Below are positions 1 through 21,509 of a stretch of DNA of 64,000 nucleotides, in pieces. Where the stretch lies: positions 143,153-207,152 of the forward strand of contig CAZQQT010000004.1 in the NCBI GenBank assembly GCA_964595645.1. The letters are read 5' to 3'. The position numbers were made by a program, and so were the translations under genes. The notes beneath the pieces were generated by a model. The model was given only the letters and a program-made list of their open reading frames with translations, was not told the DNA's origin and did not search any database. Origin of the DNA: an uncultured Thermococci archaeon (GTDB lineage: Archaea; Methanobacteriota_B; Thermococci; Methanofastidiosales; B48-G16). Positions within the stretch are counted from its first letter, which is position 1; each line of letters starts with the position of its first letter.

Positions 1-56
1 AATCGTAGAAGAGAAGTACTATGAAATTCGTTAAAAGCTAAAATATGGTGATGAAT

Positions 57-965: not shown

Positions 966-967
966 CA

Positions 968-2218
968 ATGAACATCTCAATTATTGGCACAGGTTACGTT
1001 GGGCTCGTGACAGGAGCCTGCCTCGCCAGCCTTGGCCATACCGTGACCTGCGTGGATATCGTACAGGAAAAAGTAGATCGTATCAATAACAAACAGCCAC
1101 CTATTTATGAAGGGGGGCTGGAAGAGATATTACAGGAGACGGTGGGAACAAGGCTGTCAGCCACCACAGACCTCAAAAAAGCGGTACTTAACTCTGACAT
1201 CACATTCATCTGTGTGGGGACGCCCTCAAAGGAAGATGGATCCATCGATTTGATGTATATAAAAAAAGCCGCAAGGCAAATAGGCACGGCCCTCAAAGAG
1301 AAAGAGGAGTACCATCTGGTGGTAGTAAAATCCACCGTTATTCCTGGAACAACAGAAAAAATAAAAGAAATTATAGAAAAATCCTCAGGAAACCAACACT
1401 TCGGCATCTGTATGAACCCCGAGTTTCTTAGGGAGGGAAAAGCAGTCCACGATTTTATGCATCCCGATCGGATTGTAATCGGTGTCGACGAGAAAAAAAG
1501 CGGCGATATGCTCGACAAATTGTACAAAAATTTTTCATGCCCAATCCTCCGCGTTGATATACGAACGGCAGAGATGATAAAGTACACGTCCAACGCGTTT
1601 CTCGCAACGAAAATCTCCTTTATCAATGAGATCGGGAATATCTGTAAGAAATTAGGCATCGACGTGTACGATGTCGCCGAAGGGATGGGGTTAGACACAC
1701 GGATCTCGCCGAAGTTCTTACGGGCGGGCTGTGGGTTTGGCGGCTCGTGTTTTCCCAAGGACGTGAAGGCACTGATTGCCAAAGCGATGGAGCTGACCTA
1801 CGATCCCACGCTCCTCGAAAGTGTGATGAAGGTAAACGAGCGGCAGCCGCTACAAATGATTGAGCTGCTGAAAAATAAGCTAGGAGATGTAGAAAACAAA
1901 AATATCGGCGTACTGGGGCTTGCCTTTAAGCCCGAGAGCGACGATATTAGAGAGTCCCGTGCGATCCCGATCATTCAGGGGCTAATAGAAGAAAACGCGA
2001 ATGTCTACGCGTACGATCCAAAAGCAATGGGACACATGAAGGAACGCTTCCCAGAAGTAAGGTATGAAGACAATGCTCAGTCCGTGATAGACAAAACTGA
2101 GGCCGTGTTACTAGTCACAGCATGGCAGGAGTTTAAAAATCTCAACTATAACAATAAACTGGTGATCGACGGTAGAAAGATTCTCGAAGGAAACAACTAC
2201 GAGGGGATATGTTGGTGA
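968..2218 (+). CDS. ugd: UDP-glucose 6-dehydrogenase
   Basis: IIGTGYVGL, KSTV.PGT, NPEFLREG, catalytic GFGGSCFPKD, GLAFKP..DD.RES. Confidence 0.93.
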   Translation: MNISIIGTGYVGLVTGACLASLGHTVTCVDIVQEKVDRINNKQPPIYEGGLEEILQETVGTRLSATTDLKKAVLNSDITFICVGTPSKEDGSIDLMYIKKAARQIGTALKEKEEYHLVVVKSTVIPGTTEKIKEIIEKSSGNQHFGICMNPEFLREGKAVHDFMHPDRIVIGVDEKKSGDMLDKLYKNFSCPILRVDIRTAEMIKYTSNAFLATKISFINEIGNICKKLGIDVYDVAEGMGLDTRISPKFLRAGCGFGGSCFPKDVKALIAKAMELTYDPTLLESVMKVNERQPLQMIELLKNKLGDVENKNIGVLGLAFKPESDDIRESRAIPIIQGLIEENANVYAYDPKAMGHMKERFPEVRYEDNAQSVIDKTEAVLLVTAWQEFKNLNYNNKLVIDGRKILEGNNYEGICW

Positions 2219-2222
2219 TCAC

Positions 2223-3002
2223 ATGGTGAAGAAAGGAGTAATTCTCGCGGCTGGCGAGGGAACACGGCTGCGGCCTATCACGAAAGCGATTCCGAAGGAG
2301 ATGATTCGAGTCGGAAAAAAACCGACGATAGGGCACGTGGTTGAAGTACTACGGCATGGGGGGGTAGAGGAAGTGTTGGTGATCGTGGGAAGAAAGAAAC
2401 ACGCCATCATCGATTATCTGGGATCAGGGGATGAGTTTGGTATCGATGTGTACTATCGAGTCCAAGAAGAACCGAAGGGTACGGCCCACGCCACTGCCCT
2501 AGCCGAAACGTTCATCGATCACGACGACTTTGCCCTGATCTATGGGGACAACTACATCTCGCCGTACAACGTGATGAAAGAAATTGTTGCTTTTCATAAG
2601 CAAAAAAACGGTGCGGGGACTTTGGTCTTGAACCCTGTCAACGATCCTCGCCGTTTTGGGGTGGTAAACCTCGATGATGAGAACAAAGTACGTGGAATCA
2701 TAGAGAAACCCACCTTGAAAGAGGCCCAACCGTACAAACGGAACGATCACTGGCTGAATATCGCTGGGTTGATGATACTCTCATCCAAGATATTTACGTA
2801 TATACGAAAAGTGGAGCCGGGGAAAAACAACGAACTCTGGCTCACAGACGCCATTGAGCTGATGAGAAAGAATAAAAATGACCTCTACGGCTATATCTAT
2901 AAAGGGAAACGGTACGATATCGGGACCTTTGAGTCGCTGAAAAAAGCTGATGAGCTTGAGTTAGAAAGAAGAAAGGAAAATTCTAAAAACAAGAAAGAAT
3001 AG
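2223..3002 (+). CDS. Sugar-1-phosphate nucleotidyltransferase (RmlA/GalU-like)
   Basis: ILAAGEGTRLRPIT...PK, QEEPKGTAHA, GDN, IIEKP, DIGT. Confidence 0.9.
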   Translation: MVKKGVILAAGEGTRLRPITKAIPKEMIRVGKKPTIGHVVEVLRHGGVEEVLVIVGRKKHAIIDYLGSGDEFGIDVYYRVQEEPKGTAHATALAETFIDHDDFALIYGDNYISPYNVMKEIVAFHKQKNGAGTLVLNPVNDPRRFGVVNLDDENKVRGIIEKPTLKEAQPYKRNDHWLNIAGLMILSSKIFTYIRKVEPGKNNELWLTDAIELMRKNKNDLYGYIYKGKRYDIGTFESLKKADELELERRKENSKNKKE

Positions 3003-3013
3003 GTGCTGAAAAT

Positions 3014-3979
3014 ATGACAACAACACTTGTCACTGGTTCTGCGGGTTTTATTGGGTTCCATGTTGCGAGAGCTTTATTGGAGAAAGACGAACAAGTTGTA
3101 GGGATCGATAATGTAAACGATTATTATTCTCAGAGATTGAAGTGGGATAGGAATTCAATATTGGAAGAATGCAATGAGTACAAGTTTTATCATGAGGATC
3201 TTTGTGATTTGAACAAATTGGAAAATATTTTTGACAAACATAGTATAGATAGGATATGTCATCTCGCTGCGCAGGCAGGCGTACGCTACTCTGTAGAAAA
3301 TCCTCACGCATATCAGAAGTCCAATTTGGAAGGATTTACTAATGTGTTGGAGATGGCAAGATATAGTGATGTAAAGAATTTTGTGTATGCTTCTTCTTCC
3401 TCCGTGTATGGCGGCAATGAAAAGATTCCTTATTCGGTCGAGGATGACGTTACAAAACCTGTCTCGTATTACGCTGCTACAAAGGTTGCGAACGAGGTAA
3501 TGGCTCATTCGTACAGTCATCTGTACGATCTACCCTGCACAGGGCTACGGTTCTTCACTGTCTATGGACCGTGGGGGAGACCAGACATGGCTTTGTTCAA
3601 ATTCACGGACAGGATCGTAAATGGAAAATCCATTGACGTGTACAACTACGGTGATATGAAAAGGGATTTTACCTATATCGACGATATTGTAGAAGGTGTT
3701 ATTTCCTCGCTAAACAAGGCGTTTGATTATGAAATATTTAATCTAGGAAACAATACTCCTATAGATTTGATGGATTTTATTGGAATGTTAGAAGATACAG
3801 TGGGGATGGAAGCTGAGAAGAACATGATGCCGATGCAGCCTGGAGATATGAAGATCACCTACGCCGATATTTCAACATCGCAAGAAAAACTGGGGTATGA
3901 ACCTAAAACTGATTTGAAAGAAGGTACCAAAAAATTTGTAGAGTGGTATATGGATTATTATAACGTAAGGTTGAGGTGA
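3014..3979 (+). CDS. UDP-glucuronate 4-epimerase-like SDR
   Basis: TGSAGFIGFH, HLAAQAGVRYS, YAATK, RFFTVYGPWGRPDMA, typical of the UDP-GlcA 4-epimerase (CapI/WcaG) family. Confidence 0.88.
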   Translation: MTTTLVTGSAGFIGFHVARALLEKDEQVVGIDNVNDYYSQRLKWDRNSILEECNEYKFYHEDLCDLNKLENIFDKHSIDRICHLAAQAGVRYSVENPHAYQKSNLEGFTNVLEMARYSDVKNFVYASSSSVYGGNEKIPYSVEDDVTKPVSYYAATKVANEVMAHSYSHLYDLPCTGLRFFTVYGPWGRPDMALFKFTDRIVNGKSIDVYNYGDMKRDFTYIDDIVEGVISSLNKAFDYEIFNLGNNTPIDLMDFIGMLEDTVGMEAEKNMMPMQPGDMKITYADISTSQEKLGYEPKTDLKEGTKKFVEWYMDYYNVRLR

Positions 3980-3982
3980 AAG

Positions 3983-5256
3983 ATGGTATTAAAAATGAAA
4001 AAGGAAATAGAAAGAGGCGAAGCTACAGTGTGCATAGTTGGGCTGGGCTATGTCGGGTTACCCCTCGCGGAGGCATTCTCCAATCACATAAGAACTATAG
4101 GAATAGATATAGATAAGAATAAGCTAAAAACTATAGAAAAAAATAATAAAAATTTAATCTGTACCTCGGATCCTTCACTGATAAAACAAGCAGATTTTAT
4201 AATTATCACGGTACCAACACCAATAACGCAATCGAAAGAACCGGATTTATCCTATGTAAAATCTGCAGCAACGACGGTAGGAAAAAATCTCAAAAAAGGT
4301 GCAACGGTGGTATTGGAATCGACCGTGTACCCTGGTGTAACTGAAGAAATCGTTGTTCCTATTTTGGAGTGTGAATCGGGACTTGTATGTGGAAAGGACT
4401 TTAAAGTCGGATATTCTCCCGAAAGAATTAACCCTGGCGATGAAGATCATACCTTAGACAAAATTACAAAAATCGTAGCAGGGATCGATGAAGACACAAC
4501 GGAAACGCTAGCTGAACTATATGGGCTGATTACCGATGTCTATAAAGCTAAGGACATTAAAACAGCGGAAGCGGCAAAGGTGATGAGAATATCCAACGAG
4601 AATTGAATATTGCGTTGATGAATGAGTTCTCTCTCATATTCGACAAAATGGGCTTAGATACAGATGCCGTGTTGGATGCTGCAGCGACAAAATGGAATTT
4701 TCATTGATATAGCCCTGGACTTGTAGGAGGGCATTGTATCCCTGTAGATCCGTATTATCTAGTATATAAAGCGAAGGAAATTGATCACCGTCCCCAGCAG
4801 CTGATCCTCGCGGGTCGTTCCATCAACGATAACATACCCAACCACGTGGCGGACATGACTATCAAGGATCTGAACGAAACGGGTAAAGTGATCAAGGATT
4901 CTAAGGTCATCGTGATGGATCTTACCTATAAAGAGAATGTAGCTGATACGAGGAAGTCTCCAGCTAAGGATCTGATAAAAGAGCTGAAGGCCTTCGATAT
5001 CGATGTTTACGGCTACGATCCTCTACTGAGTGGGGAGGAAATCAAAACCTTTGATGTGAAACCCTTGAGCAACATCAATAATCTAGATTTTGATGTGGAC
5101 AGCTTTGTTTTCACTGTTTCACACAATGAGTTCAAAGATATATCAATAAATAACTTGAAAGCTTTGACTAATACTAACCTGTTGCTCATCGATGTACGAG
5201 GAATATTTTCGAAAGATGAGTCTGAAAAAAATGGGTTCATCTATAGAACACTGTAG
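3983..5256 (+). pseudogene. UDP-N-acetylhexosamine 6-dehydrogenase (WbpO/TviB type), disrupted
   Basis: GLGYVGLP, ESTVYPG, SPERINPG. 1-nt deletion at 4584/4585 (gtg at_ gag) shifts the conserved [14 protein letters not shown]; in-frame TGA at 4705-4707 before PGLVGGHCIPVDPYY; frame continues to TAG 5254-5256. Confidence 0.9.
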
Positions 5257-5386
5257 GTACAGAATTACAAATGATCGAAAAGGGTGTATGAAAAAACAGA
5301 CGTAGTTCGTGTACAAACAGCGTCTGTTACCTGACGGCGTTCGTGTATGAATCACCTGACGTCATTCGTAATGAAATTGGGGATAA

Positions 5387-5486
5387 CAAACGCTGTTCGT
5401 ACAAAATATTTGGATGAGTCGATAAGGATTTTTTGATGTCTGGATAAGAAATCAGTTAACGGCAATTGGATTATGAACAGCGTTTG
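5387..5486. repeat. 100-bp segment bounded by 12-bp perfect inverted repeats (MITE-like remnant?)
   Basis: CAAACGCTGTTC 5387-5398 / GAACAGCGTTTG 5475-5486; extends to 15 bp with one mismatch. Confidence 0.4.
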
Positions 5487-5544
5487 GTGGGGTTGGTAAA
5501 CATCCGTCCAATAACTTTAAAAGTTTAAGTCGTTTTCACTATGT

Positions 5545-6990
5545 GTGACTCTTAAGCAAACCGTTAAGGACATAGGCATAATCGGAATCTCAAAGATGCT
5601 ACTTTCAGTAGCAGGGATAATTTTAATCCCTTTTTTGACCAAGATCCTGGGCGAACACGATTATGGTTTGTGGGTACAGGTAAGTGCAACAATAGGCATT
5701 TTAAACCCCATCATCAGAATGGGGTTGCCCTATGCCACTGTGCGCATATTCCCTTCAAAAGATGATATCAAAGAGATCGGTAAGGATTTCTCTGCGATAA
5801 CTTTCCTTGTTCTAACCACTTCTATCTTCGCTTCCACATTGATATTTTTATTCCCTTCAATACTGGCAAATACAATATTTGAAGGACGTATTATAATCGT
5901 ACAAATCCTAGCCGTATTTTTGTTCGTCCGTTCTATGGATGAACTGTTCATAACTGTATTTAGAGCTTTTAGAGAGATGAGAACCTATGCCATTTTGGAA
6001 GTGACCACCAGATATTCCGAAATAGCTCTTGCAGTGTCTTTGGTTATAATGGGTTACGGCCTGATCGGAGCAGTACTCGCATTGGTATTTGTGAGAGGTT
6101 TATTGTTTATTGTTCTCACGATTTTAGTATCAAGAAAGTTAAAATTTACAAGACCTAAATTCTCCAGAACGAAGGAATATCTAAACTTTGGAATACCTCT
6201 AATACCTTCCGATCTTTCAGTATGGTTGGTTAGCACTAGTGATAGACTTCTGATAGGTTTCTTTTTGGGTGCTACCTTTGTTGGTTATTATACTCCTGGC
6301 TACATGTTAGGGATGGCAATACCTGCAATGTTCACTGGAGTTCTCGTTTTTGTTTTAACGCCTGCCTTTTCAGAATATTACGAAAATAATGATTTGTCAA
6401 CTATCTATGTGATAACAAGCTATTCGGTGAAGTTCTTTTTGATTATCTCTTCTCTTTATTTTATAGGTGTACTACTCTTCGGAAGACGTATTCTTGAAAT
6501 ATTTGCAACCCCTGCAATTGCAGAAAACGGTTACATCATAATTATTTTTACATCTATTACGGGTTTCTTTATGGGTATTTACACGCTTTTTTCAAGATAT
6601 ATAATATTAAAAAATCGAACAAAATTAATAGCGAGTTTTTGGATGATCGCAAGTTTCGTGAATATTTCAGGAAATATTTTGTTAATCCCACGCATCGGTA
6701 TAATCGGTGCTGCAATTACAACCGTTATATCCTACTTCATACTGGTTACATTAGCTTTAAACTTTGCATTGAAAAACTTTGATATCACAATAAAACTAGA
6801 TTATATTCCAAAATTGGTTGTTTCTTCTTTTCTTACCTCGATATTCATCTTTTTTTTAATCAATTATCTAACAATAACACCCATATACATCGACATCGTT
6901 TTGGGTTCGGGTTTTTATCTATTATCCGTTTTGATTTTTAAAATATTAAAAAAAGAAGAAATTACTTTCGTTAAGAGTATAATAGGATAA
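5545..6990 (+). CDS. Oligosaccharide flippase (Wzx/MOP superfamily)
   Basis: 481 aa with many TM segments; N-terminal IPFLTKILG..YG motif, DRLLIGFFLG...VGYY, LIPRIGIIGAAITT; TTTAAAAG TATA-like box at 5516-5523 before the GTG start. Confidence 0.88.
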   Translation: MTLKQTVKDIGIIGISKMLLSVAGIILIPFLTKILGEHDYGLWVQVSATIGILNPIIRMGLPYATVRIFPSKDDIKEIGKDFSAITFLVLTTSIFASTLIFLFPSILANTIFEGRIIIVQILAVFLFVRSMDELFITVFRAFREMRTYAILEVTTRYSEIALAVSLVIMGYGLIGAVLALVFVRGLLFIVLTILVSRKLKFTRPKFSRTKEYLNFGIPLIPSDLSVWLVSTSDRLLIGFFLGATFVGYYTPGYMLGMAIPAMFTGVLVFVLTPAFSEYYENNDLSTIYVITSYSVKFFLIISSLYFIGVLLFGRRILEIFATPAIAENGYIIIIFTSITGFFMGIYTLFSRYIILKNRTKLIASFWMIASFVNISGNILLIPRIGIIGAAITTVISYFILVTLALNFALKNFDITIKLDYIPKLVVSSFLTSIFIFFLINYLTITPIYIDIVLGSGFYLLSVLIFKILKKEEITFVKSIIG

Positions 6991-7019
6991 TGAGATAAAT
7001 TCATATCATTTTTTGATAA

Positions 7020-8156
7020 TTAAGCAATCACGTTTTTAAAAATTAAAACTATATCTGATTGGTTTAATACAATAGGATTGTTTTTCAAACGTTCCATATT
7101 TACTCTAGATACAAAATCATCTAATCGAATATTTTCACAAATATTCCCTAAATATGGTTCCAAACCTATCTCGTTCATCATTCGGCCGATGAAGTTTAAT
7201 GCCTCTACAGGAGATGAACCATCCATCAACGAATATAACTCTGATATAATCTCCTGATAATAATCCGTACCCCTTTTGTCTATCAGTTTATCAATATTTT
7301 CTCCATTATACTTCAAAAACTCCTTCATCATTATCGCAACTGCATGCCCATGTGGTATACCACATTTAGAGGTGATTACGTAGGAACATGCATGAGGGGC
7401 TGTAGTCTTTGAGATGTTAATAGCCTTTCCGGAAAGATTAGCTCCCTGTAACATGTTTTTTCTAGCTGCTAAATCATCTGGTTTTTCATACGCTCGGGAT
7501 ATGTTTTCGAGTATCAATTCAATAGCTTTTTTTGCATATTCTTTAGATTCTTCTGTCGAGTTAACACTCCAATATGATTCAATGCCCTGGCATAAAGCAT
7601 CCATGCCTGTACAAGCTGTTTGATACTTAGGTAAAGTTAACGTTAATTTAGGATCCAAGACCACATAATCCGGCAATATATATTCATGAGCAACCGAATA
7701 TTTTTTCCCATCCATGTAAACCACAGCAAAATGCGTAGCCTCGCTACCCGTTCCAGCAGTGGTTGGAACAGCTAGAAAGGGTAACCCGTTGGACTCGATA
7801 CTTTTTTCCTTCAAAACATATTTTTCTGGATTAGACTCTTGGAAAGAAAATATGTTGATCAACTTAGCAACATCAATGGCACTCCCTCCACCTACAGCCA
7901 TAACTAAATCATTATCGTTTTTATTAAATTGTTCTACCCCATTTTTTATCTCTTCAATTTTAGGATTCGAAGAATAATCTGTGAACTCGTCGAATTCAAC
8001 ATCCATCTCATCTTTGATTTTTTCTAACTCCTCTTTAGCTCCATTCATCGAAAAGGATTTTTCACCATGAACTAGAAAAACTTTTTCAGCTTCTAAGTCA
8101 TCCAAAACAACTCTAGTTTTTTCGATTGCTCCATCCTCAAAGAATTCTTTAACCAT
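7020..8156 (-). CDS. Phosphonoacetaldehyde reductase (Fe-containing alcohol dehydrogenase, FomC/PhpC-like)
   Basis: GGGSAIDVAK, PTTAGTGSEAT, DAL.Q.IES, H...Y, HG.A Fe ligands; last gene of the pepM-ppd operon; GGTGA RBS favours ATG 8156. Confidence 0.88.
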   Translation of the reverse strand: MVKEFFEDGAIEKTRVVLDDLEAEKVFLVHGEKSFSMNGAKEELEKIKDEMDVEFDEFTDYSSNPKIEEIKNGVEQFNKNDNDLVMAVGGGSAIDVAKLINIFSFQESNPEKYVLKEKSIESNGLPFLAVPTTAGTGSEATHFAVVYMDGKKYSVAHEYILPDYVVLDPKLTLTLPKYQTACTGMDALCQGIESYWSVNSTEESKEYAKKAIELILENISRAYEKPDDLAARKNMLQGANLSGKAINISKTTAPHACSYVITSKCGIPHGHAVAIMMKEFLKYNGENIDKLIDKRGTDYYQEIISELYSLMDGSSPVEALNFIGRMMNEIGLEPYLGNICENIRLDDFVSRVNMERLKNNPIVLNQSDIVLIFKNVIA

Positions 8157-8157
8157 A

Positions 8158-8868
8158 TCAATCACCTAAAAAACTTTTAGCCTTTTTCAAATCAGGTTCA
8201 GTATCTATCTCCATGCAGAAAAGATCAGAAAAATCAACACTTTGTATCTTTAATTTTTCTTTTTTCAATAAGGGATTCAAAGCGTTTTCAGCGTACACCC
8301 CTTTTTTTCCATCTTCTACAAAACTTTCCATGGACCCCATCCATCTTTTAAAATCTTCATTTTTCAAAAAATAAAATGGCATAAAACCTACTTTTCCATC
8401 TATATCTACACCTATCTCTTTTACAAATCCATCTTCTATACAAGCATTGAAATCTTTTTTTAATGATTCGTCATGATTCACGAGTCCACGGCTATACTTA
8501 TCATCATATAACAGTAAATCTAAAATCCTTTTTTCGAATACTAAATCGCCGTGTAGTAACAAAATATCTTCAGGCCCGATCAATTCCTTTGCCAGATAGA
8601 GAGAATAGATATAATTTGTAGATTTGTATTCTAGATTGTGTACGTATTCGATTTTTAACTCGTTATAAACTTCTTCAACATGTTCTTTTAGTTTATCTTC
8701 AAAGGGTCCTGTTGTTATGACAATCTCCTTGATACCTTTCTCCGAAAGCAATCTTAGCTGCCTAGACAATATAGTTTCATCATTTAATTCCACCATGCAT
8801 TTAGGCTTGTCATCGGTATAGTGCCCCATCCTCTTACCTTCACCTGAATTAAGGATTATAGCCTTCAT
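8158..8868 (-). CDS. Phosphonate/phosphocholine cytidylyltransferase-family NTP transferase (LicC/PntC-like)
   Basis: KAIILNSG.GKRM....PKCM, TNYIYSLY, HGDL, EIDT..DL; located between ppd and the reductase. Confidence 0.82.
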   Translation of the reverse strand: MKAIILNSGEGKRMGHYTDDKPKCMVELNDETILSRQLRLLSEKGIKEIVITTGPFEDKLKEHVEEVYNELKIEYVHNLEYKSTNYIYSLYLAKELIGPEDILLLHGDLVFEKRILDLLLYDDKYSRGLVNHDESLKKDFNACIEDGFVKEIGVDIDGKVGFMPFYFLKNEDFKRWMGSMESFVEDGKKGVYAENALNPLLKKEKLKIQSVDFSDLFCMEIDTEPDLKKAKSFLGD

Positions 8869-8877
8869 GGTCTCACT

Positions 8878-10014
8878 TTAATCCTGCAAAAAATCCATGA
8901 ACATCTCTTTTCTTTCTATCGGTCCGATATCTGGCCTACCTAAATCTTTTCTAGCACCTTTTTTAACTCTAACTTCAAGAAGAGCTGGTCCTTTTGTTTT
9001 CAACAACTCCTTAATTTTCTCATCTACTTCCGATGGAGTGTTAGCTTTCATTACTTTGTTATATCCCGCTCCTTCAGCAATCTTTTGGAAATCTACAACT
9101 GGAGCAGCTGTAGGCTGACCACCTACAGAATCGTGGGCACAGTTATTTAGTATTACATGTTTAAGATTGACTGCATCATTCAAGCTTATTGTAGATAAAA
9201 CTCCCATGTGCATGATCAAAGAACCGTCACCTTCAATGCATATAACCTGTTTATCTTCATTTCTTAAAGCTATCCCTAAAGCTATCTGTGAGGCGTGTCC
9301 CATCGAACCGACCATCAAAAAATCTTTCTCATGTCCTTGGTTCAATCTTCCACGTACTTCGTAAAGCTCCCTAGATATCTTACCTGTGGAAGAAACCACA
9401 AGATTTTCTCCAGTCTTCCATTCAATATTTTTTATAATCTTCTCGATCGCTTCTTCCCTAGTAATATCACAACTGATATTTTCATCCTGTTCTAAAGTAT
9501 ATTCTAAGAAAGTTCCTCTCTTAACAACTAATGCTCGAGGTTTTTTATCGTCTTTCATATCCTTAACAATCTCTTCGACCAAAGCTTTAGCTTCTGATAT
9601 CTTTTCAGGCAAAACAAAGTTGGGTATATCCATAGTATCCAACAGATCTCTAGTGACTTTCCCTTGTTTGATGTGCTGACAGGTATCTTTCTTACCTGGT
9701 TCACCTCTCCATCCTATCATCAAAAGAACAGGTATATTGTACACTTCTTCATCTACCAAAGACAACAGCGGATTAGTAGCATTTCCCATACCAGAATTTT
9801 GCATGTAGACCAGTGGAATTTTTCCTGTGGACAAGTAATACCCCGACGCTACACCAATTGCATTACCTTCATTCGCAGCGATAATATGATTTCCTTTAGA
9901 TACGTTATCTGTGACATAGGCACAAAAACACTTCAGTAATGAATCAGGAACTCCAGTAAAAAACTCTACATCATTATCAATCAATGTAGAGAAAAATTCT
10001 CCAGGATCTAACAT
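8878..10014 (-). CDS. ppd: Phosphonopyruvate decarboxylase
   Basis: FFTGVPDSLLK, ANEGNA, YMQNSG.GN..NPL.SL, FLMVGSMGHASQIALG, ThDP motif GDG...NN, HDSVGGQ. Confidence 0.95.
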   Translation of the reverse strand: MLDPGEFFSTLIDNDVEFFTGVPDSLLKCFCAYVTDNVSKGNHIIAANEGNAIGVASGYYLSTGKIPLVYMQNSGMGNATNPLLSLVDEEVYNIPVLLMIGWRGEPGKKDTCQHIKQGKVTRDLLDTMDIPNFVLPEKISEAKALVEEIVKDMKDDKKPRALVVKRGTFLEYTLEQDENISCDITREEAIEKIIKNIEWKTGENLVVSSTGKISRELYEVRGRLNQGHEKDFLMVGSMGHASQIALGIALRNEDKQVICIEGDGSLIMHMGVLSTISLNDAVNLKHVILNNCAHDSVGGQPTAAPVVDFQKIAEGAGYNKVMKANTPSEVDEKIKELLKTKGPALLEVRVKKGARKDLGRPDIGPIERKEMFMDFLQD

Positions 10015-11316
10015 CTATTTCCCTCCAGGTATAAGAGTTAAGATGTCTCTTATACCCATACAGTACTTTTCGTCTGCTTCCTTAGCTCGATTGTGCTCCA
10101 AGATACTTTCAGCAGCTTTCTTCATAGCTGGATATGCACTACGCAGGAGATGATTGGCATAAATAACCACATTTGCTCCGGCTTCTATCAACTCTTCTTC
10201 GGTTATTTGACAATACGTGGTTGGAACCACGACAACTGGAACCTTATACTCAAAATCTTCATACTCGTCAAAGAACGCTAAGATATCATCTGGATCATCG
10301 TCTTTGCTGTGGATCATTACAGCATCTACACCAGCATCTATGTAAGCCTCAGCCCGCTCCAAGGCATCATCTAATCCAGCATCAAGTATCAAGCTTTCTA
10401 TACGAGCTATTATCATGAAATCATCAGTGACCTGTGCTTTTTTACCTTCTGATATTTTCCTCGTAAAGTTTTCTATAGTATCCTGTTTTTGCTCCACTTC
10501 TGTACCGAATAAGGAATTTCTCTTCAATCCTATCTTATCCTCTATTATCACGGCAGAAACGCCTATTCTCTCTAGGGTTTTAACTGTGTAAACAAAATGT
10601 TCGACTTTACCGCCTGTATCCCCATCCAATATTATCGTTTTGGTCGTAACCTCCAAGATCTCATTAATCGTATTGATCCGTGAAGTTTCATCGACTAACT
10701 CAATGTCAGGTTTTCCTTTCACTGTAGAATCACATAAACTACTTACCCACATCCCATCGAAGCTTTCTATTTTATCCTCTTTAGGGAATTTTGTTTTCTC
10801 GGCTATCAACCCAGTTAATCCGTTATGAGCTTCTATGATGCGAACGATGTCTTTTTTTTCTATAAGCTTTCTAAGCTTCTTCCTTCTTTCATCTGGCGTT
10901 GTTCCCAATTCTTCAATCTTTTCATCCAATTTATCTAGCGAAACATCTTTCGTATATTCAACTTCGACTAGTTCTCCTCCCCATTCCTCTAAAGTTTCTA
11001 TAACTTTTTCCCTAATTTTTTGTTGAGGTCCAGTCTTCCAATCTTCTCCATGGACTACATAATCCGGCTTTAGCTCTTTCAATGTAGGGGTATAATCAAG
11101 TTCTTCTTGCCTAACTACGTTTTCAACGCCTTTGATATTTTCTATCACTTTTTTGCGTTGATCGTACTCTAATAGAGGATAACGCTTATAGCTAGCCATT
11201 ACTTCATCCGTCAAGATTCCTACTGTTACTTCCCCTAACTCCCTAGCCTTTTCTATCACGTTTATGTGGCCATGATGTATTATATCCGTTCCTATCGTAA
11301 GATAGACTTTTTTCAT
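10015..11316 (-). CDS. pepM: Phosphoenolpyruvate mutase with N-terminal cytidylyltransferase domain
   Basis: N-terminal D.IHHGH (HxGH) cytidylyltransferase domain; C-terminal EAHNGL, DGDTGG and the diagnostic EDKxxxxxNS (EDKIGLKRNS). Confidence 0.96.
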   Translation of the reverse strand: MKKVYLTIGTDIIHHGHINVIEKARELGEVTVGILTDEVMASYKRYPLLEYDQRKKVIENIKGVENVVRQEELDYTPTLKELKPDYVVHGEDWKTGPQQKIREKVIETLEEWGGELVEVEYTKDVSLDKLDEKIEELGTTPDERRKKLRKLIEKKDIVRIIEAHNGLTGLIAEKTKFPKEDKIESFDGMWVSSLCDSTVKGKPDIELVDETSRINTINEILEVTTKTIILDGDTGGKVEHFVYTVKTLERIGVSAVIIEDKIGLKRNSLFGTEVEQKQDTIENFTRKISEGKKAQVTDDFMIIARIESLILDAGLDDALERAEAYIDAGVDAVMIHSKDDDPDDILAFFDEYEDFEYKVPVVVVPTTYCQITEEELIEAGANVVIYANHLLRSAYPAMKKAAESILEHNRAKEADEKYCMGIRDILTLIPGGK

Positions 11317-11352
11317 TTTTTACCTCCTTTTATTTAATTAGACTATTACTCT

Positions 11353-12045
11353 CTAATCAATTATTGATTCATCATCTTTATAATAAATATAATCTTTTTT
11401 AGGTGTTTTCCAGTCTTTACCATATCTATATTCGAGATATTCTTCCACAGGACTAGGAATATTGAATTTTATACCGTAAAATTGTATTGTAGATAACTCA
11501 TTAAAATATTTTGCAGGTATTGAGATGAAAATTTTAGATGACAACATATCATGGATTTTATTTAGACTTTTAATCATTTTCCTTCTGATTTCCGGAGAAA
11601 ATTTGGAAAAAAAGTGTCCCATAGCGTTAGTTAGAAAAAAGGGATATCTTATTTTAATAAATTTAGCACTTCTTTTATCTTCAACTAAATGTCTAATATA
11701 ATTAATCATTGGTCCAACATAATAATCATTTACTTTCCAAAAGGTAGTTGCAGTATCATCTTTTTTATCATACAATGTTATATCGATTCTAATATCTTCA
11801 TAATAAATATGTATGTGTTTTGAATAAATAACTAAATAATCACTAGGAAGTTGGTGGAGAGCCTTTTTTACTTCATTATAATTGTCACTCCAACTTCCTA
11901 AGTCAATATCATTATCCCCTTCTATTATCTTTCCATCTCTAACTGCACCAAGTAATGTTCCAGAATCCAACCAGAAACATATATCTTCCTTATCCAAAAG
12001 CGTTCCAATTCTTTTCAAGATTTTTGAAGCTTTTTTTCCTTCCAT
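11353..12045 (-). CDS. LicD-family phospho-substituent transferase
   Basis: FWLDSGTLLGAVRDG...DNDIDL, IDI, P.P.E.YL..RYG..WKTP. Confidence 0.9.
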   Translation of the reverse strand: MEGKKASKILKRIGTLLDKEDICFWLDSGTLLGAVRDGKIIEGDNDIDLGSWSDNYNEVKKALHQLPSDYLVIYSKHIHIYYEDIRIDITLYDKKDDTATTFWKVNDYYVGPMINYIRHLVEDKRSAKFIKIRYPFFLTNAMGHFFSKFSPEIRRKMIKSLNKIHDMLSSKIFISIPAKYFNELSTIQFYGIKFNIPSPVEEYLEYRYGKDWKTPKKDYIYYKDDESIID

Positions 12046-12075
12046 TCTGAATCACGTTATATAGAGGATTTATTA

Positions 12076-13854
12076 TTACGAATTCATTTTTTCAATTTTA
12101 TAGGTGTAATAAAATTCATTGTCGTATACCCTATTTACTGAAGAATCATTATTTAATTTATTATATGTTGTTTCATTAAAAAACCAGTCTTCTTCATAAT
12201 CCGTAAATACTTCATAAAATAATATGCGCGTTACATCAGTATGAGTGATATATCCAGAAAAGTTTTCTCCTACCGTCTCATGTTCCTTATATCCAAAATG
12301 TTGTGGCATTTCTTTTTCTTGTTGGCTTTGAATTCTATCCGGAACAGAATACCTTCCATAAATAAGATGTCCCATCCTTTCTCTATCTGTCCCAAAACTC
12401 CAAATTGATTCATTCCCTTTGCTGTTTTCTAAAAACCATTCTGATCCGACTACTTCTTGCAAAGAAACTTGATTATTAGCCTCTTTGGATATAGAGGAAG
12501 GATGTACACTAAAAACAGAAATCACTATAATAATAAAAATTAAAATAGTCAATATTATTGTTTTGGTCAATCTATTTTGAAAACTAAAGTTTATTATTAT
12601 TGTGCTGATAAATATAGAAAAAAATGTAAACCATTTAAAAAGCCTATAAAAATGTACAAAATCAACAAAAAAATTCATTCCGGACCAAACTACAAAAGTT
12701 AGAAAAGATAAAATAAAAAATCCGGACAGATTTTTATTAAAAAAAACGAAGATAGTACTTTTTCTCTGTTTGACAAGTGTAAATAAGATAATCAATAACG
12801 AAAAAAATAACAGAATCATTTCCAAACCAAATCTAAACATTATTATTTGTATAGCATCTATAACTTTTACATCATACACATTCAAAGCCGCAGTATAGTA
12901 TACTAAAGCAGGATTAATTGCTTCTTCAATAAATAATGAATATAAAGCTTTTCTAAATCCATGTTGTATTGTAGGAAATAAAAAATACCAATTAAACCAG
13001 AGTGAAAATAAAGCTAATACACCTTTATTTGGCAAATTTCTAAATTGGTGTTCGTCACTATATTTCAAAAAACTGCTGTGATAAATATAAAGATCGAAAA
13101 TGATAAGAATTATAAAAATATAAAATGAGGATATTGGATGAGAAAAAATCAAACCAACCATCATTATAAAAAAACAAATTAATGTATTCTTTTTCTTTTT
13201 TTCTCTGTAAATTTTGATTATTAAATATATAAGTAGAGGAAGAAATAAAAAAACCATGTTGTTTGGTTTAATATTCAAATGTACCGCCCCAAAAATCAAG
13301 AGTATTCCTAGTAAGATAGGATACTTTCTGTTTATATCATTAAAACCGTGTTTAAAAAGTATATATATCGAAGATGAAAAAAATATGTAAAAAACAATTG
13401 AAAAGAATTGAAATATTATAGTTACAGGCATCTTTGTTATCAATGCAAAATTTGTGGCAAAGACATGTAATCCGGGGTAGTAATTTTGATCGTGGACGAA
13501 CCCCCTGCCCATTAGATCCTTAATACATCCTATATGAGTTATTATATCTCCTCTACTGTAAATAAAGTAACCTCTAAAAATCGGTAAGGATATAATTAAA
13601 ATATTAATATATAAAATTACTCCAACCCCATACAAAAGATATTTCTTATCATCTGAATGAATAACTACTAATGAACCAAAAATAAGAGAAATTACTATTA
13701 ATAACCAAAAGTAATTTGGAAACGCGGAATATATTGATGGTTCATATGATTCTACTTGGGGTGTAATAATAAGTATAATATCAATTAGTATTGAAGATAT
13801 CAGTGCTAACAAAAGAATGAACCGGATGTGAATAGCTTTTAAATTAATACCCAT
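12076..13854 (-). CDS. Polytopic membrane protein (GT-C/polymerase-like) of the glycan locus
   Basis: 592 aa, many TM segments; GD..TH.G, N.YP.LH, HP motif and C-terminal N.VYDN as in archaeal glycan-cluster membrane proteins. Confidence 0.65.
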   Translation of the reverse strand: MGINLKAIHIRFILLLALISSILIDIILIITPQVESYEPSIYSAFPNYFWLLIVISLIFGSLVVIHSDDKKYLLYGVGVILYINILIISLPIFRGYFIYSRGDIITHIGCIKDLMGRGFVHDQNYYPGLHVFATNFALITKMPVTIIFQFFSIVFYIFFSSSIYILFKHGFNDINRKYPILLGILLIFGAVHLNIKPNNMVFLFLPLLIYLIIKIYREKKKKNTLICFFIMMVGLIFSHPISSFYIFIILIIFDLYIYHSSFLKYSDEHQFRNLPNKGVLALFSLWFNWYFLFPTIQHGFRKALYSLFIEEAINPALVYYTAALNVYDVKVIDAIQIIMFRFGLEMILLFFSLLIILFTLVKQRKSTIFVFFNKNLSGFFILSFLTFVVWSGMNFFVDFVHFYRLFKWFTFFSIFISTIIINFSFQNRLTKTIILTILIFIIIVISVFSVHPSSISKEANNQVSLQEVVGSEWFLENSKGNESIWSFGTDRERMGHLIYGRYSVPDRIQSQQEKEMPQHFGYKEHETVGENFSGYITHTDVTRILFYEVFTDYEEDWFFNETTYNKLNNDSSVNRVYDNEFYYTYKIEKMNS

Positions 13855-13912
13855 ATATACTCCTCAATTTACCAACTTTTTATAACCTTGAAGTTTTATT
13901 TTTAAAACTAAT

Positions 13913-14830
13913 TTATCTAATAAAATCAAACAATTTCTTAAATCGTTCTTTTCTATAATATTCAATCACATCCGGATCATTAATTCTTTCTTCTTGATTT
14001 ATAAATGCTTGGAGATACCCAGAAATATGCCCAATACCATATACAGGTTTAGAAAACATACAAAAGAATATTCTAGCTAATAACATGAGAGGATGATAAT
14101 ATTGAATGTAGGCCCTGTATCCATGAAATTTCCCCATCTCATACATATTTTCAAGTGTAGTATTAGTTTCACGAACCAAACACCCCCAAACATCTTCGAT
14201 GTGAGCAACTTCATAACCATTCATTATAGCTTTAGCATGGATTATATCCGATGATGCATCCGTGATAGGAAAGCCGCCGATTTCATTAAGAAACGATTTC
14301 CTATAAATTCTGATTTCATCAAACGGTTCATCAACTCTATTTTCGCTGCTGTAAATTACTAAATTTTTATCATTTAGAATTCTTTGAGGTTGCTTTAGGG
14401 CTGAAACATCTATACTCTTTTTCAAAGTCATTAAATTTGGACTAGCTATAGCTAAATCTGGTCGTTTCTCCATTTCGTTAATTATTCTTTCAAATGTTTC
14501 ATCATGGAACCTAGCATCCGCATCAGCTTTGGCTAGATATTTAACCCTATTAGAAATTTTTAAGGACTTATCAAATCCTGTGCTTAAAACTTTAGCAAAA
14601 TGTTTTCCGAATGTCCTCTCTGATTTTTCTGACATCCTAAACGAATGTATCCAGCCGTATTCAACACATAATTTTTTTAATAGTTCAGGCGTACTGTCAG
14701 TACTACCGTCGTCTATTATTACCCATGCTTGAGGTTTTTGCGATTGATCTATAACACATTTTGCTAAGTCATTAATGTTTTCTTCTTCATTTTTTACTGG
14801 AGAGATTAAATTATAATCTGGGTTGACCAT
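13913..14830 (-). CDS. Glycosyltransferase family 2
   Basis: ISPVKNEE, IIDDGSTD, DAD. Confidence 0.9.
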   Translation of the reverse strand: MVNPDYNLISPVKNEEENINDLAKCVIDQSQKPQAWVIIDDGSTDSTPELLKKLCVEYGWIHSFRMSEKSERTFGKHFAKVLSTGFDKSLKISNRVKYLAKADADARFHDETFERIINEMEKRPDLAIASPNLMTLKKSIDVSALKQPQRILNDKNLVIYSSENRVDEPFDEIRIYRKSFLNEIGGFPITDASSDIIHAKAIMNGYEVAHIEDVWGCLVRETNTTLENMYEMGKFHGYRAYIQYYHPLMLLARIFFCMFSKPVYGIGHISGYLQAFINQEERINDPDVIEYYRKERFKKLFDFIR

Positions 14831-14831
14831 G

Positions 14832-14990
14832 TTACATACCCCTCTCTAAATTAGATAAATATTTTTTCAACCACTTCACCATTTTGTTCTCAGCGCCTAA
14901 TTTTCTTATTTTTTATTCTCCAATACTGTCTGTTACAGATTCAAAATTTTGAACATCATACATAACCATTCCAATATCCTCTTCTTCCAA
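14832..14990 (-). pseudogene. C-terminal remnant of a second PssE/Cps14G (Alg13-like) gene, fused to the ugd pseudogene
   Basis: Translation LEEEDIGMVMYDVQNFESVTDSIGE*KIRKLGAENKMVKWLKKYLSNLE aligns with the C-terminus of 17739-18209 (LEKENIGVVVYNIENLENVLNKDYKKIRSFNTKNKLISKLNDYIKNIE). Confidence 0.7.
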
Positions 14991-15905
14991 TAAATCAACA
15001 GTATGAAGAGATTGTTCTTCATTGACCTCTAAAACCGAACTCAATATTTTGGCATTAAACCCTAATTCTTCTGCAAAGTTATGTATAGCTTTTACATCTT
15101 TTGGGAAGCAACTACCTCCAAAGCCGGCTCCTGCATTCAAAAAATCTCTGTTGATTCGATGATCTAGGCCTACTCCATCCATCACGTCTATACATCGATT
15201 CCGACTTTTTCGCAAATTCTTGATAACTCATTCGCAAATGATATTTTAGTGGCTAGCAAGGCATTCGAGGCATACTTTATCATCTCTGCAGTCCTTATAT
15301 CGGTCTTAACCACAGGCGCATCGAAATTTTCATAAGCTTTAGAAACCTTATTGACCGTTTTTTCATCCCTTCCTCCTATCACTATCCTATCGAGATTTAA
15401 GAAGTCATCCAATGCAATGCTACCCCTTCCCGTAAAAATTCAGGATTCATACCGAGGCCCAAATCTTCTGCAATCTCTTTCCCGCTCTCTTCTAAAATGG
15501 TAGGACTTTTGTGTCAGTGGTAGTTGGAACTACGGTACTCTTAACACAAATTACATGATAATCATCTTTTTCTGATAAAGCCTTAGAAATATTTTCCGCA
15601 GTCTTTTCTACATCACTGGTATCGATACTACCATCTTGTTTAGAAGGAGTTCCCACACAGATAAAAGTAACATCGGTTTGTTTTATCGCATCTACAGTAT
15701 CCGTCGTAGCTATCATTTTATCTTCATTAACTACTTCTTTCAATAATTTGTCTAGCCCCTCTTCGTATATAGGCGGAACTCCCTGATTGATTTTGTCGAC
15801 TTTTTCTTCATCTATATCTACACAGGTTACTTCATGACCCTTGGATGCAAATCCAGTTCCTGAAACTAATCCTACGTAACCTGTACCTATTATGCTTATT
15901 TTCAT
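14979..15905 (-). pseudogene. ugd: Second UDP-glucose 6-dehydrogenase, frameshifted and truncated
   Basis: Motifs IIGTGYVGL, MNPEFLREG and GFGGSCFPKD are spread over successive frames. 1-nt loss ~15497, 5-bp duplication AATGC at 15411-15420, 1-nt loss ~15190; GLAFKP domain missing. Confidence 0.92.
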
Positions 15906-15919
15906 CCAAAATCACCGTT

Positions 15920-16846
15920 CTAGTCTTTTCTGAAGTATTCTATCGTCTTCTTTAAACCTTTTTCTAATCCTATCTTCGGCTCCCAATCCAACTTTTCTTT
16001 GGCTTTAGTGATATCTGGTTTCCTTCTCTCTGGGTCGTCTTTTGGCTGTTCCTCATAAGTCAGATCACTATCAGTATCGATCAACTCTATTGTCTTCTCG
16101 GCAAGCTCTAAAATGCTGATTTCATGGGGATTACCTAGATTTACAGGAGTGTTTACATCTGCCTTCATCAACATCCAAATCCCCTCGATCAAATCATCAA
16201 TATAACAGAAACTCCTAGTTTGACTGCCATCTCCATGGACTGTAAGATCTTCGTCATTCAGTGCTTGAGTGATAAAGGTGGGAATCACTCTCCCATCATC
16301 GGCTCTCATCCTGGTCCCATAGGTATTAAATATTCTAGCCAACCTAATATCTATATCATGTTTGCGATGGTAAGCCATACATATCGCTTCTCCATAGCGT
16401 TTTGATTCATCATAACATGATCTGAAACCTATCGGATTTACATTACCCCAATAATCTTCTGTCTGAGGATGTACTTCAGGATTGCCGTAAACCTCGCTTG
16501 TAGACGTGAAAAGATACTTCGCATCTTTAGCTTTAGCTAATCCCAAAGTTTTGTGAGTTCCCAATGCGCCGGATTTCAATGTTTTTATTGGATATTCCTT
16601 GTAGAATATGGGTGAAGCTAAACTTGCCAGATGTAAAACCCAATCAACGTCTCCCCCTACATGAATGAAATCAGTAACATCATGTTCATAGAACTGGAAA
16701 TTTTTGTGGTAAAAGAAATCGTTTAAATTTTCATCTCTTCCGCTCACTAAATTGTCTAAACAAACAACTTCGTGGCCTTTATTCAATAAATACTCACATA
16801 AATGACTTCCAATAAAACCAGCTCCTCCGGTTATTACTATCCTCAT
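15920..16846 (-). CDS. UDP-glucuronate decarboxylase (UDP-xylose synthase)
   Basis: [46 protein letters not shown]. Confidence 0.92.
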
Positions 16847-17707
16847 CTAATCACCTCTAAAATAATTATCTTTTATCCATTCTTTCAATTCTTCTCCCAA
16901 TTCTTCTTTGATTGCCAAATCTATCGTTGTTTTGATATAGTCTTTTTTATTTCCAATATCATATCTTGTACCTTCATAGTAATATGCGTACTGCTCATCG
17001 ATTAATCTTAAGGCATCGGTAAGCTGCACGTCTCCTCCTTTCCCAGGACCAACTTCTTCTAGAGCATCAAAAATATTAGGGGTTAATAGATATCTACCTA
17101 AAATAGCTAAATTAGAAGGGGCTTCATCAACTGGCGGTTTTTCTATTAAATCATCGATCTGGTAAACATTATCTTCTCCTTTTTCTCCTGAAATAACTCC
17201 ATATAAGTTTACCTTATCTTCAGGAACTTTCTCAACCGCTGTTATAGATTTTTCATATTTCTGATATAGGTCTATTAACTCTTTAGTACAGTTGGGTCTA
17301 GTAATCGTATCCCCGAGGAGAAGCACAAAGGGATTATCTCCTACATGTTTTTTAGCATATCTAATAGAATCACCTAGTCCTTTAGGTTCCTTTTGTCGGA
17401 CATAGTGTATGTCAGCCATGTTAGAAATCTCTCTTACCCTTTCTAGCATCTTTTCTTTGCCACTCTTTTTGAGATGATTCTCAAGTTCATAGAAAGTATC
17501 AAAGTAATCTTCGATTGAGCGTTTGTGTTTGCCCGTGATTATCAATATATCGTCTAGTCCTGCGGATAATGCTTCGTTTACGACATAGTGCATGACGGGT
17601 CTATCAACGACCGGCAACATCTCTTTTGGTTGACTTTTAGTTGCAGGAAGCAACCGAGTACCCATTCCAGCAGCTGGGATCACAGCTTTAGTTATTTTTC
17701 TTTTCAT
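16847..17707 (-). CDS. galU: UTP--glucose-1-phosphate uridylyltransferase
   Basis: KAVIPAAG.GTRLLPATKSQPKEMLP, IEDYFD, RQKEPKGLG, VQLTDA. Confidence 0.93.
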   Translation of the reverse strand: MKRKITKAVIPAAGMGTRLLPATKSQPKEMLPVVDRPVMHYVVNEALSAGLDDILIITGKHKRSIEDYFDTFYELENHLKKSGKEKMLERVREISNMADIHYVRQKEPKGLGDSIRYAKKHVGDNPFVLLLGDTITRPNCTKELIDLYQKYEKSITAVEKVPEDKVNLYGVISGEKGEDNVYQIDDLIEKPPVDEAPSNLAILGRYLLTPNIFDALEEVGPGKGGDVQLTDALRLIDEQYAYYYEGTRYDIGNKKDYIKTTIDLAIKEELGEELKEWIKDNYFRGD

Positions 17708-17738
17708 CTAATCTCACCTCACTATAAAATACAGTTTT

Positions 17739-18209
17739 TCATTCTATATTTTTAATATAATCATTCAATTTTGAAATTAATTTATTTTTTGTATTAAAAC
17801 TTCTAATTTTTTTATAATCTTTATTTAGAACATTTTCTAGATTTTCTATATTATATACAACCACTCCAATATTTTCTTTTTCTAATTTTTTACTTATTTC
17901 TAATTGGTGATTATCATAGTGTTCATTGTATTTTTTTTGTCTAGGAACAATTATCATTGGCTTATCATAACTGTAAGCTGTAATGATTGTCCCTATACCA
18001 GCGTGACCTATGATAAGTCTCGATTTTTTATATAAATCATTAATTTTTGCATTTGAAGTATATCTAAAAAATCGTGTATGATTTGGTTTATATTTGGTAT
18101 CTCCTATTTGCATAATTATCTTTTCATCTAAATTGGGTTTAATTTCATCTACTTTTTTAATTAATCTACTGAAATCATGAGAACTTCCACCAACAGTTAC
18201 AAAAATCAA
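17739..18209 (-). CDS. PssE/Cps14G (Alg13-like, GT28 C-terminal) glycosyltransferase subunit
   Basis: IFVTVG, F.RL, IGHAG.GT, VPR..Y.EH.DNHQ.E; TTG start overlaps the stop of the upstream gene. Confidence 0.88.
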   Translation of the reverse strand: MIFVTVGGSSHDFSRLIKKVDEIKPNLDEKIIMQIGDTKYKPNHTRFFRYTSNAKINDLYKKSRLIIGHAGIGTIITAYSYDKPMIIVPRQKKYNEHYDNHQLEISKKLEKENIGVVVYNIENLENVLNKDYKKIRSFNTKNKLISKLNDYIKNIE

Positions 18210-18697
18210 ATTACCTTCCCCCAATATTTAGCTTTTTCATATTTTCTTGATAAAGAATCCCACTGGACTAAGAATAAATCACTTATAGGATAGATTAATT
18301 TAGCACCAGGAGATATTCCTTTAACCCGAGTTAAAGATTCTAAATAAATAACTTTTTTACCAAATAATTTTCCGATGTATGATAGACTAATACTTGCAGG
18401 ACCTCCACTACAAAAAATCACGTCAGGTCTTTCTTTATATACTATATACAAGCTCATAATAAAGCTATAAATTTGATATAAAACTAATAATATGAGATAA
18501 AGGTATTTAGACTCCAGGGAGGTAAATACTTCAGAGAAATGTTTTTTTAAATAATATACCTCATTTTCATTTTTAAGTTCTGATGAAACTTCGGAAAATG
18601 CCGTCACAAAAAAAGTCTCTTCATCTTTAAAAGCATCTATAATTTGGTTTGTTTCATCAAGGTGTCCACCTGGACCTACAGAAATACAAATTTTCAT
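18206..18697 (-). CDS. PssD/Cps14F (Alg14-like) glycosyltransferase subunit
   Basis: GGHL.E, RPDVI..G, IYLES.TRV, FLVQW. Confidence 0.88.
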   Translation of the reverse strand: MKICISVGPGGHLDETNQIIDAFKDEETFFVTAFSEVSSELKNENEVYYLKKHFSEVFTSLESKYLYLILLVLYQIYSFIMSLYIVYKERPDVIFCSGGPASISLSYIGKLFGKKVIYLESLTRVKGISPGAKLIYPISDLFLVQWDSLSRKYEKAKYWGKVI

Positions 18698-21477: not shown

Positions 21478-21509
21478 ATTATTCACCATATAATTTGTTA
21501 AATATCATA

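Follow-up and report, generated by a model that had tools for sequence, protein, structure and literature searches.

The locus described here raises the question of whether an uncultured, anaerobic archaeon of the class Thermococci could tailor its cell surface with a phosphonate, and by which route. It lies in a 64,000-nucleotide stretch of DNA (hereafter the window; contig CAZQQT010000004.1 of assembly GCA_964595645.1, forward-strand positions 143,153 to 207,152), which makes up the final 64 kb of a contig of 207 kb in a 1.97-Mb genome that is 99.96% complete. A minus-strand run of five intact open reading frames (ORFs) spans window positions 7020–12045, amid genes for glycan synthesis and export. 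With a confidence of roughly two in three, we read this run as a horizontally acquired phosphonyl-tailoring cassette that would convert phosphoenolpyruvate (PEP) to 2-hydroxyethylphosphonate (HEP), activate it as CMP-HEP and transfer it, through a LicD-family enzyme, onto a lipid-linked glycan destined for flipping by a Wzx-type protein.

A compact phosphonate cassette

Read in the order of increasing coordinates, and all on the minus strand, the five genes encode an iron-type alcohol dehydrogenase (Fe-ADH; 7020–8165; Pfam PF00465 and PF25137), a LicC/PntC-like nucleoside triphosphate (NTP) transferase (8158–8868; PF12804/PF00483, MobA-like), a thiamine diphosphate (ThDP)-dependent phosphonopyruvate decarboxylase (Ppd; 8878–10014; TIGR03297), a Fom1-type fusion of a cytidylyltransferase with PEP mutase (PepM; 10015–11316; PF01467 and PF13714, TIGR02320), and a LicD-family phosphotransferase (11353–12045; PF04991). 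The intergenic distances in the same order are −8, 9, 0 and 36 bp, such that the Fe-ADH gene overlaps the NTP transferase gene and the Ppd start abuts the PepM stop. The first-pass annotation of this DNA had listed five tightly spaced or overlapping genes, and we recovered them at the same coordinates, with their identities backed by Pfam and NCBIfam models. The order LicD–PepM–Ppd–NTP transferase–Fe-ADH also recurs in related metagenomic loci (L007/L030 and L027).

Predicted formation of the C–P bond

The PepM moiety (residues ~145–431 of the fusion) scored 398 bits against TIGR02320, above its equivalog cut-off of 320, and matched structures 5unc and 1m1b at E-values of 1e-42 to 1e-40. The motif EDKIGLKRNS, cited in the first-pass annotation, was located at residue 259 of the fusion. 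Ppd likewise exceeded its equivalog cut-off (TIGR03297, 479 versus 313 bits) and carries the GDG...NN ThDP motif at residue 262; an identity as the sulfopyruvate decarboxylase of coenzyme M synthesis was rejected, as the ComD and ComE models scored below cut-off. From this equivalog-level homology and these motifs, the PepM domain is predicted to convert PEP to phosphonopyruvate, and Ppd would then yield phosphonoacetaldehyde, pulling the unfavourable mutase step forward.

Predicted reduction to HEP

The Fe-ADH, a group III (Fe/Zn-type) alcohol dehydrogenase, would reduce phosphonoacetaldehyde to HEP. It retains GGGS at position 92, D189, Q193, H258 and H272. Gln193, where 1vhd has His, was considered as a possible metal-site defect and dismissed, since Gln is common to all 80 metagenomic relatives collected and to PDB entry 6jko. 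The genomic neighbourhoods of these 80 relatives were inspected, counting as informative those whose upstream sequence reached 1.5 kb or more. Ppd or PepM adjoined 33 of the 40 informative relatives at ≥36% identity, and none of the nine below 36%; since the loci are mutually related, this contrast is presented as counts, without a statistical test. Because of this difference in adjacency, the enzyme can be placed in a clade whose genes associate with phosphonate clusters, and it is predicted to be a phosphonoacetaldehyde reductase of the PhpC/FomC type. PhpC-type enzymes are reversible, and those clustered with pepM are biosynthetic (PMC13576164).

Two candidate cytidylyltransferases

Formation of CMP-HEP from HEP and CTP could be carried out by the PepM-fused domain, by the free LicC/PntC-like enzyme, or by both. 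The fused domain (residues ~1–136; PF01467 at residues 11–104) bears HHGH, an HxGH motif, at residue 14 and aligned over 133 residues (4–136) with PDB 5x3d, the cytidylyltransferase domain of Fom1, at an E-value of 1.6e-45. Its N-terminal fusion to PepM, the HxGH motif and its closeness to 5x3d place it in the Fom1 type, with HEP as predicted substrate. The Fom1 domain itself is cited as forming CMP-HEP (PMC6697681).

The free NTP transferase is a more distant match (PF12804, 45.8 bits), with LicC (1jyk, E-value 7.5e-12) as its sole PDB relative; the PntC structures 6PD1 and 6PD2 gave no match at an E-value of 1e-5. Its signature, GEGKR-x8-PK, is close to the consensus GxG(T/S)Rx4-8PK, with Lys replacing Thr/Ser. 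In related loci, the LicC-like gene usually lies between those for Ppd and Fe-ADH. We consider it probably a second phosphonate cytidylyltransferase. Both the reduction and the cytidylylation steps are predictions drawn from close homology and gene-neighbourhood statistics.

LicD and proposed attachment to a glycan

The cassette LicD, the only one in the genome, scored 48.8 bits against PF04991 (gathering score 22.6). Its AlphaFold model (predicted local distance difference test score 88.6) retrieved FKRP in all ten top Foldseek hits, with TM-scores of 0.53–0.55 over the full query length, and both aspartates of its DxD motif (D46 and D48) are invariant in 41 homologues. FKRP is a CDP-ribitol-dependent ribitol-phosphate transferase. 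From its position in the operon, LicD is predicted to move HEP from CMP-HEP onto a glycan hydroxyl with release of CMP.

By hydropathy, no membrane segments were found in LicD, either cytidylyltransferase or Fe-ADH, and the chemistry of the cassette would therefore be cytoplasmic and precede flipping by the adjacent Wzx. In the pathway that we propose, soluble LicD would act on the cytoplasmic side, modifying a lipid-linked glycan, and Wzx would then flip the decorated glycan, which may reach the cell surface as an N-glycan, an S-layer glycan or an exopolysaccharide. Two STT3/AglB homologues are encoded elsewhere in the genome, making N-glycosylation possible as a surface route.

Each step of the HEP route put forward in the first-pass annotation found in-silico support (equivalog-level PepM and Ppd, a Fom1-like domain, an Fe-ADH from a Ppd/PepM-linked clade and an FKRP-fold LicD), and its proposal that the route is independent of O2 agrees with the enzyme types of the cassette, none of which needs O2. 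The claim that LicD decorates a surface glycan with HEP is supported by the FKRP-like fold and by the setting among glycan genes that include a flippase, but was worded with too much certainty as to donor and acceptor, both of which, like the final location, we infer. The mechanism then proposed holds up; the presence of two cytidylyltransferases and the probable horizontal acquisition of the module had escaped attention.

How the LicC-like and LicD genes are distributed across related loci suggests that the two move together, one making the donor and the other transferring from it, in the manner of LicC and LicD. Every HEP-type locus with LicD also had a free LicC-like gene, and LicD occurred in none of ~27 loci lacking the LicC-like gene; among 18 well-flanked loci, three had both, three the LicC-like gene only, 12 neither and none LicD only, these being small numbers with several near-duplicate loci.

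In three related loci (L042, L046 and L065), the genes downstream of Fe-ADH include one for a TagF-like phosphotransferase of the CDP-glycerol type (PF04464, 300 bits), which either replaces LicD or accompanies it. The TagF-like proteins are thus another class of candidate phosphonate transferases.

Contiguity with the archaeal genome

A read-level check of whether the cassette is contiguous with the archaeal genes, as suggested in the first-pass annotation, was made for window positions 1–20000 using two sequencing runs from two samples of one microbial-mat study. All sampled words of the stretch were present in both runs. In each run's own assembly, one 23.2-kb contig spanned window positions 1799–20000 with zero differences, at depths of 33.4× and 63.8×, while an adjoining 12.6-kb contig on the upstream side had depths of 34.4× and 66.5×, so that the between-sample depth ratio was equal for the two. 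The assembly may itself derive from these two runs, leaving their independence incomplete. Because a single contig runs from the left flank across the cassette, with a depth that matches its neighbour's, it is very unlikely that the cassette was joined on by a chimeric assembly.

Both runs also contained a lower-depth contig (10× and 26×, against 33× and 64×) that skips 448 bp at window positions 17899–18348, inside an Alg13/Alg14-like gene pair. A deletion there in a minority strain would account for it.

The archaeal character of the surrounding DNA, recognised in the first-pass annotation by two marker genes, was verified for both: aRF1 at 53005–54249 and CarS at 56165–56704 (minus strand, 198 bits). 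The closest relatives of aRF1 were uncultured 'Euryarchaeota' metagenome-assembled genomes (MAGs) at 72–73% identity, followed by Methanofastidiosa and Theionarchaea MAGs (57–60%) and by Pyrococcus and Thermococcus (52–55%); within the class, the host thus resembles Theionarchaea and Methanofastidiosa.

Probable horizontal origin of the cassette

Among 133 species genomes of class Thermococci, 99 of them of high quality, PepM was found in the host genome alone, in line with the first-pass remark that such a route is uncharacterised in this lineage. Base composition also sets the region apart. Genome GC content averages 0.432 (SD 0.031 per 5 kb), while window positions ~6.8–26.8 kb fall to 0.28–0.35, a range reached by just 2.6% of the genome's 5-kb windows. 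GC content at third codon positions (GC3) was 0.30–0.35 for PepM, Ppd, the NTP transferase and Fe-ADH (3rd–8th percentile of the genome), and 0.20–0.25 (below the 1st percentile) for LicD and the next two genes upstream, which encode a membrane protein (12076–13854) and a glycosyltransferase. A synteny search of one same-genus and four same-family genomes returned no DNA-level counterpart of window positions ~1–30.6 kb; variability thus extends to the entire glycan locus, with the cassette as one module within it.

PepM sequences were compared and placed in a phylogeny, as proposed in the first-pass annotation. The nearest PepM sequences were unnamed metagenomic ones (80–89% identity) and that of a Thermoplasmata-labelled MAG (locus L007; 87%), followed by Halanaerobium and Natroniella (76%) and other Bacillota (~70%). 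In a quick, midpoint-rooted tree with support from the Shimodaira–Hasegawa-like approximate likelihood ratio test (SH-aLRT) only, the window PepM formed a clade with L007 and the unnamed sequences (support 99), nested inside a Halanaerobiales group (support 96) and apart from a clade of Nanoarchaeota, Woesearchaeota and Heimdallarchaeota sequences, in whose MAGs PF01467–PepM cassettes also occur. The cassette was probably acquired horizontally, its nearest named PepM kin being Halanaerobiales; the simplest reading of these sequence comparisons would be a Halanaerobiales-like donor, independent of the other archaeal cases, with a direction of transfer that we infer. LicD is more divergent than PepM, at ≤46% identity to anything, which fits a mosaic locus.

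One of the other archaeal clusters, in a Nanoarchaeota MAG (L009, 6299–12791), is of the 2-aminoethylphosphonate (AEP) type. It comprises a B12-binding radical S-adenosylmethionine (SAM) protein, a free PF01467 cytidylyltransferase, a cytidylyltransferase–PepM fusion, Ppd, a LicC-like NTP transferase and an AepZ transaminase (446 bits, above cut-off), and thus contains three nucleotidyltransferase domains.

The surrounding glycan locus

Upstream of LicD, 30 bp away, lies the gene for the membrane protein of about 12 transmembrane (TM) segments by hydropathy (12076–13854, minus strand; a weak DUF6541 match, PF20176, 32 bits). From its context, it is possibly a glycan polymerase or GT-C-like enzyme; no counterpart was found in locus L007. 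The same-strand gene run is headed by a GT2 glycosyltransferase (13913–14830, minus strand; PF00535). On the other side, a Wzx-type flippase of the Polysacc_synt family (5545–6990, plus strand; PF01943 and PF13440, 10 TM-like segments) converges with Fe-ADH across a 29-bp gap. The flanks further contain several GT2s, epimerases/dehydratases, UDP-glucose dehydrogenases (UGDHs), sugar nucleotidyltransferases and the Alg13/Alg14-like pair, so that the flippase, GT2 and nucleotide-sugar genes described in the first-pass annotation were all recovered by domain scans.

Several of these neighbours are damaged. A UGDH pseudogene (14913–15905, minus strand) abuts the head GT2, with residues 1–302 spread across several frames and the C-terminal domain gone. 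A second, distantly related UGDH-like gene (3983–5256, plus strand) is in two pieces and shares no DNA similarity with the pseudogene; both may be recombination scars around the 5545–14830 block. A SAM-dependent methyltransferase gene (18983–19859, minus strand) looks split by a frameshift: ORF 19503–19859, with a Cys-rich N-terminus and ending in the SAM motif IDLGCGYG, overlaps ORF 18983–19567, which holds the rest of the domain.

Further along, a same-strand glycan run comprises a cytoplasmic PF01663 phosphodiesterase/AlkP-family protein (19924–21489), a B12-binding radical SAM protein (21510–22946) and a GT2 (22943–23950), all on the minus strand; relatives of the PF01663 protein (27–28% identity) lie near PepM in L007 and L009. 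Two AbiEii/AbiEi toxin–antitoxin pairs were also seen on the minus strand, one (24445–25898) close to where the low-GC island ends on the right and the other (38282–39768) with 81% DNA identity to a same-genus genome. Short multicopy sequences (85–97% identity) at window positions ~34420–35805 recur at or near contig ends of a same-genus genome (G001). They resemble a mobile element or dispersed repeat at which assemblies break off.

Weighing alternative explanations

Several observations weigh against the HEP-decoration pathway. By hidden Markov model, the Fe-ADH is generic, scoring 170 bits against the PsrA model with its cut-off of 424. Two cytidylyltransferases, one fused and Fom1-like and one free and LicC-like, coexist in the cassette, and we found in the literature no published assay of a LicD protein with a CMP-phosphonate donor. 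At least three genes in the island are broken, indicating some decay around the cassette, and no RNA sequencing run was listed as containing the stretch.

As to the first-pass statement that the window holds neither MpnS nor HepD, a domain scan found no cupin or dioxygenase domain in the ORFs of window positions 1–26 kb, no MpnS- or HepD-specific model or genome search having been run. The genes that follow related HEP cassettes encode GT2, Wzx, DegT, FdtA, Wzy, LicD or TagF-like proteins, and never an MpnS-like one. A 435-amino-acid ORF after Fe-ADH in the marine locus L056 was tried as an MpnS candidate and rejected, being Wzx-like and lacking a PDB relative.

The co-occurrence of the LicC-like gene and LicD can also be explained differently. 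The two might form a self-contained pair attaching a non-phosphonate group, such as a CDP-activated alcohol phosphate, with CMP-HEP going elsewhere, either via an unrecognised transferase or onto lipid. We regard this as unlikely, although in related HEP loci LicD occurs only with the free LicC-like gene, as in classical LicC/LicD systems, many HEP cassettes lack both genes and must therefore use another CMP-HEP transferase, and the closest solved relative of LicD, FKRP, uses CDP-ribitol. Against it, the LicC-like gene is embedded between Ppd and Fe-ADH, here with its 8-bp overlap and in most related loci, and PntC enzymes of the LicC-like family prefer phosphonates (PMC6697681). The two CDP-alcohol phosphatidyltransferases of the genome are unlinked, on other contigs, and no choline kinase was found in the near-complete genome, for which reason a phosphocholine Lic route was rejected.

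It is somewhat less probable still that the cassette is a recently acquired passenger, silent or decaying and without phenotype. Its very low GC3 (0.20–0.35, mostly below the 8th percentile), the uniqueness of its PepM in the class and its broken neighbours (the UGDH pseudogene, the fragmented UGDH-like gene and the split methyltransferase) are compatible with this, as is the lack of RNA runs among those listed for the stretch. However, all five ORFs are intact and retain catalytic motifs, and gene order and sequences are kept at 46–89% relative to relatives in other metagenomes, a conservation implying that the clade is under purifying selection.

A variant of the HEP-decoration pathway, equally doubtful in our view, would make the LicC-like enzyme and LicD an obligate attachment module plugged into a Fom1/Fom2/FomC-type HEP core, with the fused Fom1-like domain doing a separate job (such as supply of a second acceptor, or pathway pull). 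If this were true, there would be two CMP-phosphonate streams, or else HEP repeats built through the free hydroxyl of HEP, so that an anaerobic archaeon would bear a phosphonate polymer resembling teichoic acid.

It is highly improbable that CMP-HEP is instead an intermediate to a fosfomycin-like small molecule. The Fom1/Fom2/FomC-like trio and the B12-binding radical SAM protein at 21510–22946, encoded 9.5 kb from the cassette in the same orientation, invite the idea, but we saw neither HppE/Fom4 nor a FomD-like gene, and the rest of the locus consists entirely of glycan genes. The radical SAM protein was rejected as a Fom3 analogue, being HpnJ-like (TIGR03471, 369 bits, below cut-off) and only 24–29% identical to the PepM-adjacent radical SAM proteins of L009 and L047; no link between it and the phosphonate was found.

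Production of AEP through an unlinked aminotransferase is similarly remote, since no AEP transaminase scored above cut-off, either in the window, as the first-pass annotation had noted, or in the whole genome (PhnW, 155 versus 401 bits; AepZ, 192 versus 361), both matches lying on another contig and the 192-bit AepZ one being a class-V aminotransferase on C6, whereas the operon carries its own dedicated reductase.

Comparison with known systems and significance

The predicted early steps are those of fosfomycin biosynthesis in Streptomyces, with the same Fom1 (cytidylyltransferase–PepM), Fom2 (Ppd) and FomC (Fe-ADH) trio and the same predicted product, CMP-HEP. The archaeal cassette, however, lacks Fom3, Fom4 and FomD and instead has LicD and a second, LicC-like cytidylyltransferase in a glycan locus, so that a surface decoration and no antibiotic is predicted. 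With the bacterial Pnt pathway (Ppm–Ppd–AEPT–PntC plus a LicD-like gene; Rice et al. 2019, PMC6697681), it shares C–P bond synthesis, LicC-like CMP activation and a LicD-like gene beside glycan genes, but reduction to HEP by Fe-ADH replaces transamination to AEP, and the host is an archaeon.

The end product predicted here, HEP esterified to polysaccharide, corresponds to the HEP phosphonoglycans of Glycomyces and Stackebrandtia (cited in PMC8942020 and PMC13576164). Those hosts are actinomycetes, of a different phylum, and the gene neighbourhood differs; the archaeal product is a prediction from genes. The first three steps, to HEP, are also held in common with methylphosphonate synthesis in Nitrosopumilus maritimus (PepM–Ppd–ADH–MpnS). 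There, in contrast to the window, MpnS follows; here no MpnS-like gene was seen, the predicted pathway stops at HEP and continues with cytidylylation and LicD, and PepM belongs to a different, Halanaerobiales-like clade. Isolated products exist only for the Nitrosopumilus methylphosphonate adduct, the one archaeal case of this kind, and for the Stackebrandtia HEP polysaccharide (PMC8942020).

The first-pass annotation overstated the novelty of the arrangement. Among Ppm proteins, 23.6% are PF01467–Ppm fusions, and phosphonate clusters have been noted to have LicD-like neighbours (PMC6697681); HEP-type neighbourhoods account for 8.5% of 434 surveyed, 12 of the 434 being archaeal (PMC8942020); and the cassette recurs in the other archaeal MAGs named above. 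No PepM had been seen in this class before. The cassette does not represent a new pathway; bacteria commonly carry the same module, where it has been catalogued, and what is known of phosphonate biosynthesis is unchanged by it.

The attachment enzyme, usually missing from such clusters, can be named here since LicD is present, and the compact five-gene set is well suited to testing LicD on CMP-phosphonates and the coexistence of two cytidylyltransferases. For the organism itself, the cassette would place a predicted phosphonate surface chemistry in an anaerobic, uncultured lineage of the class Thermococci, and would exemplify a bacterial, Halanaerobiales-like module moving into archaea within a mat community.

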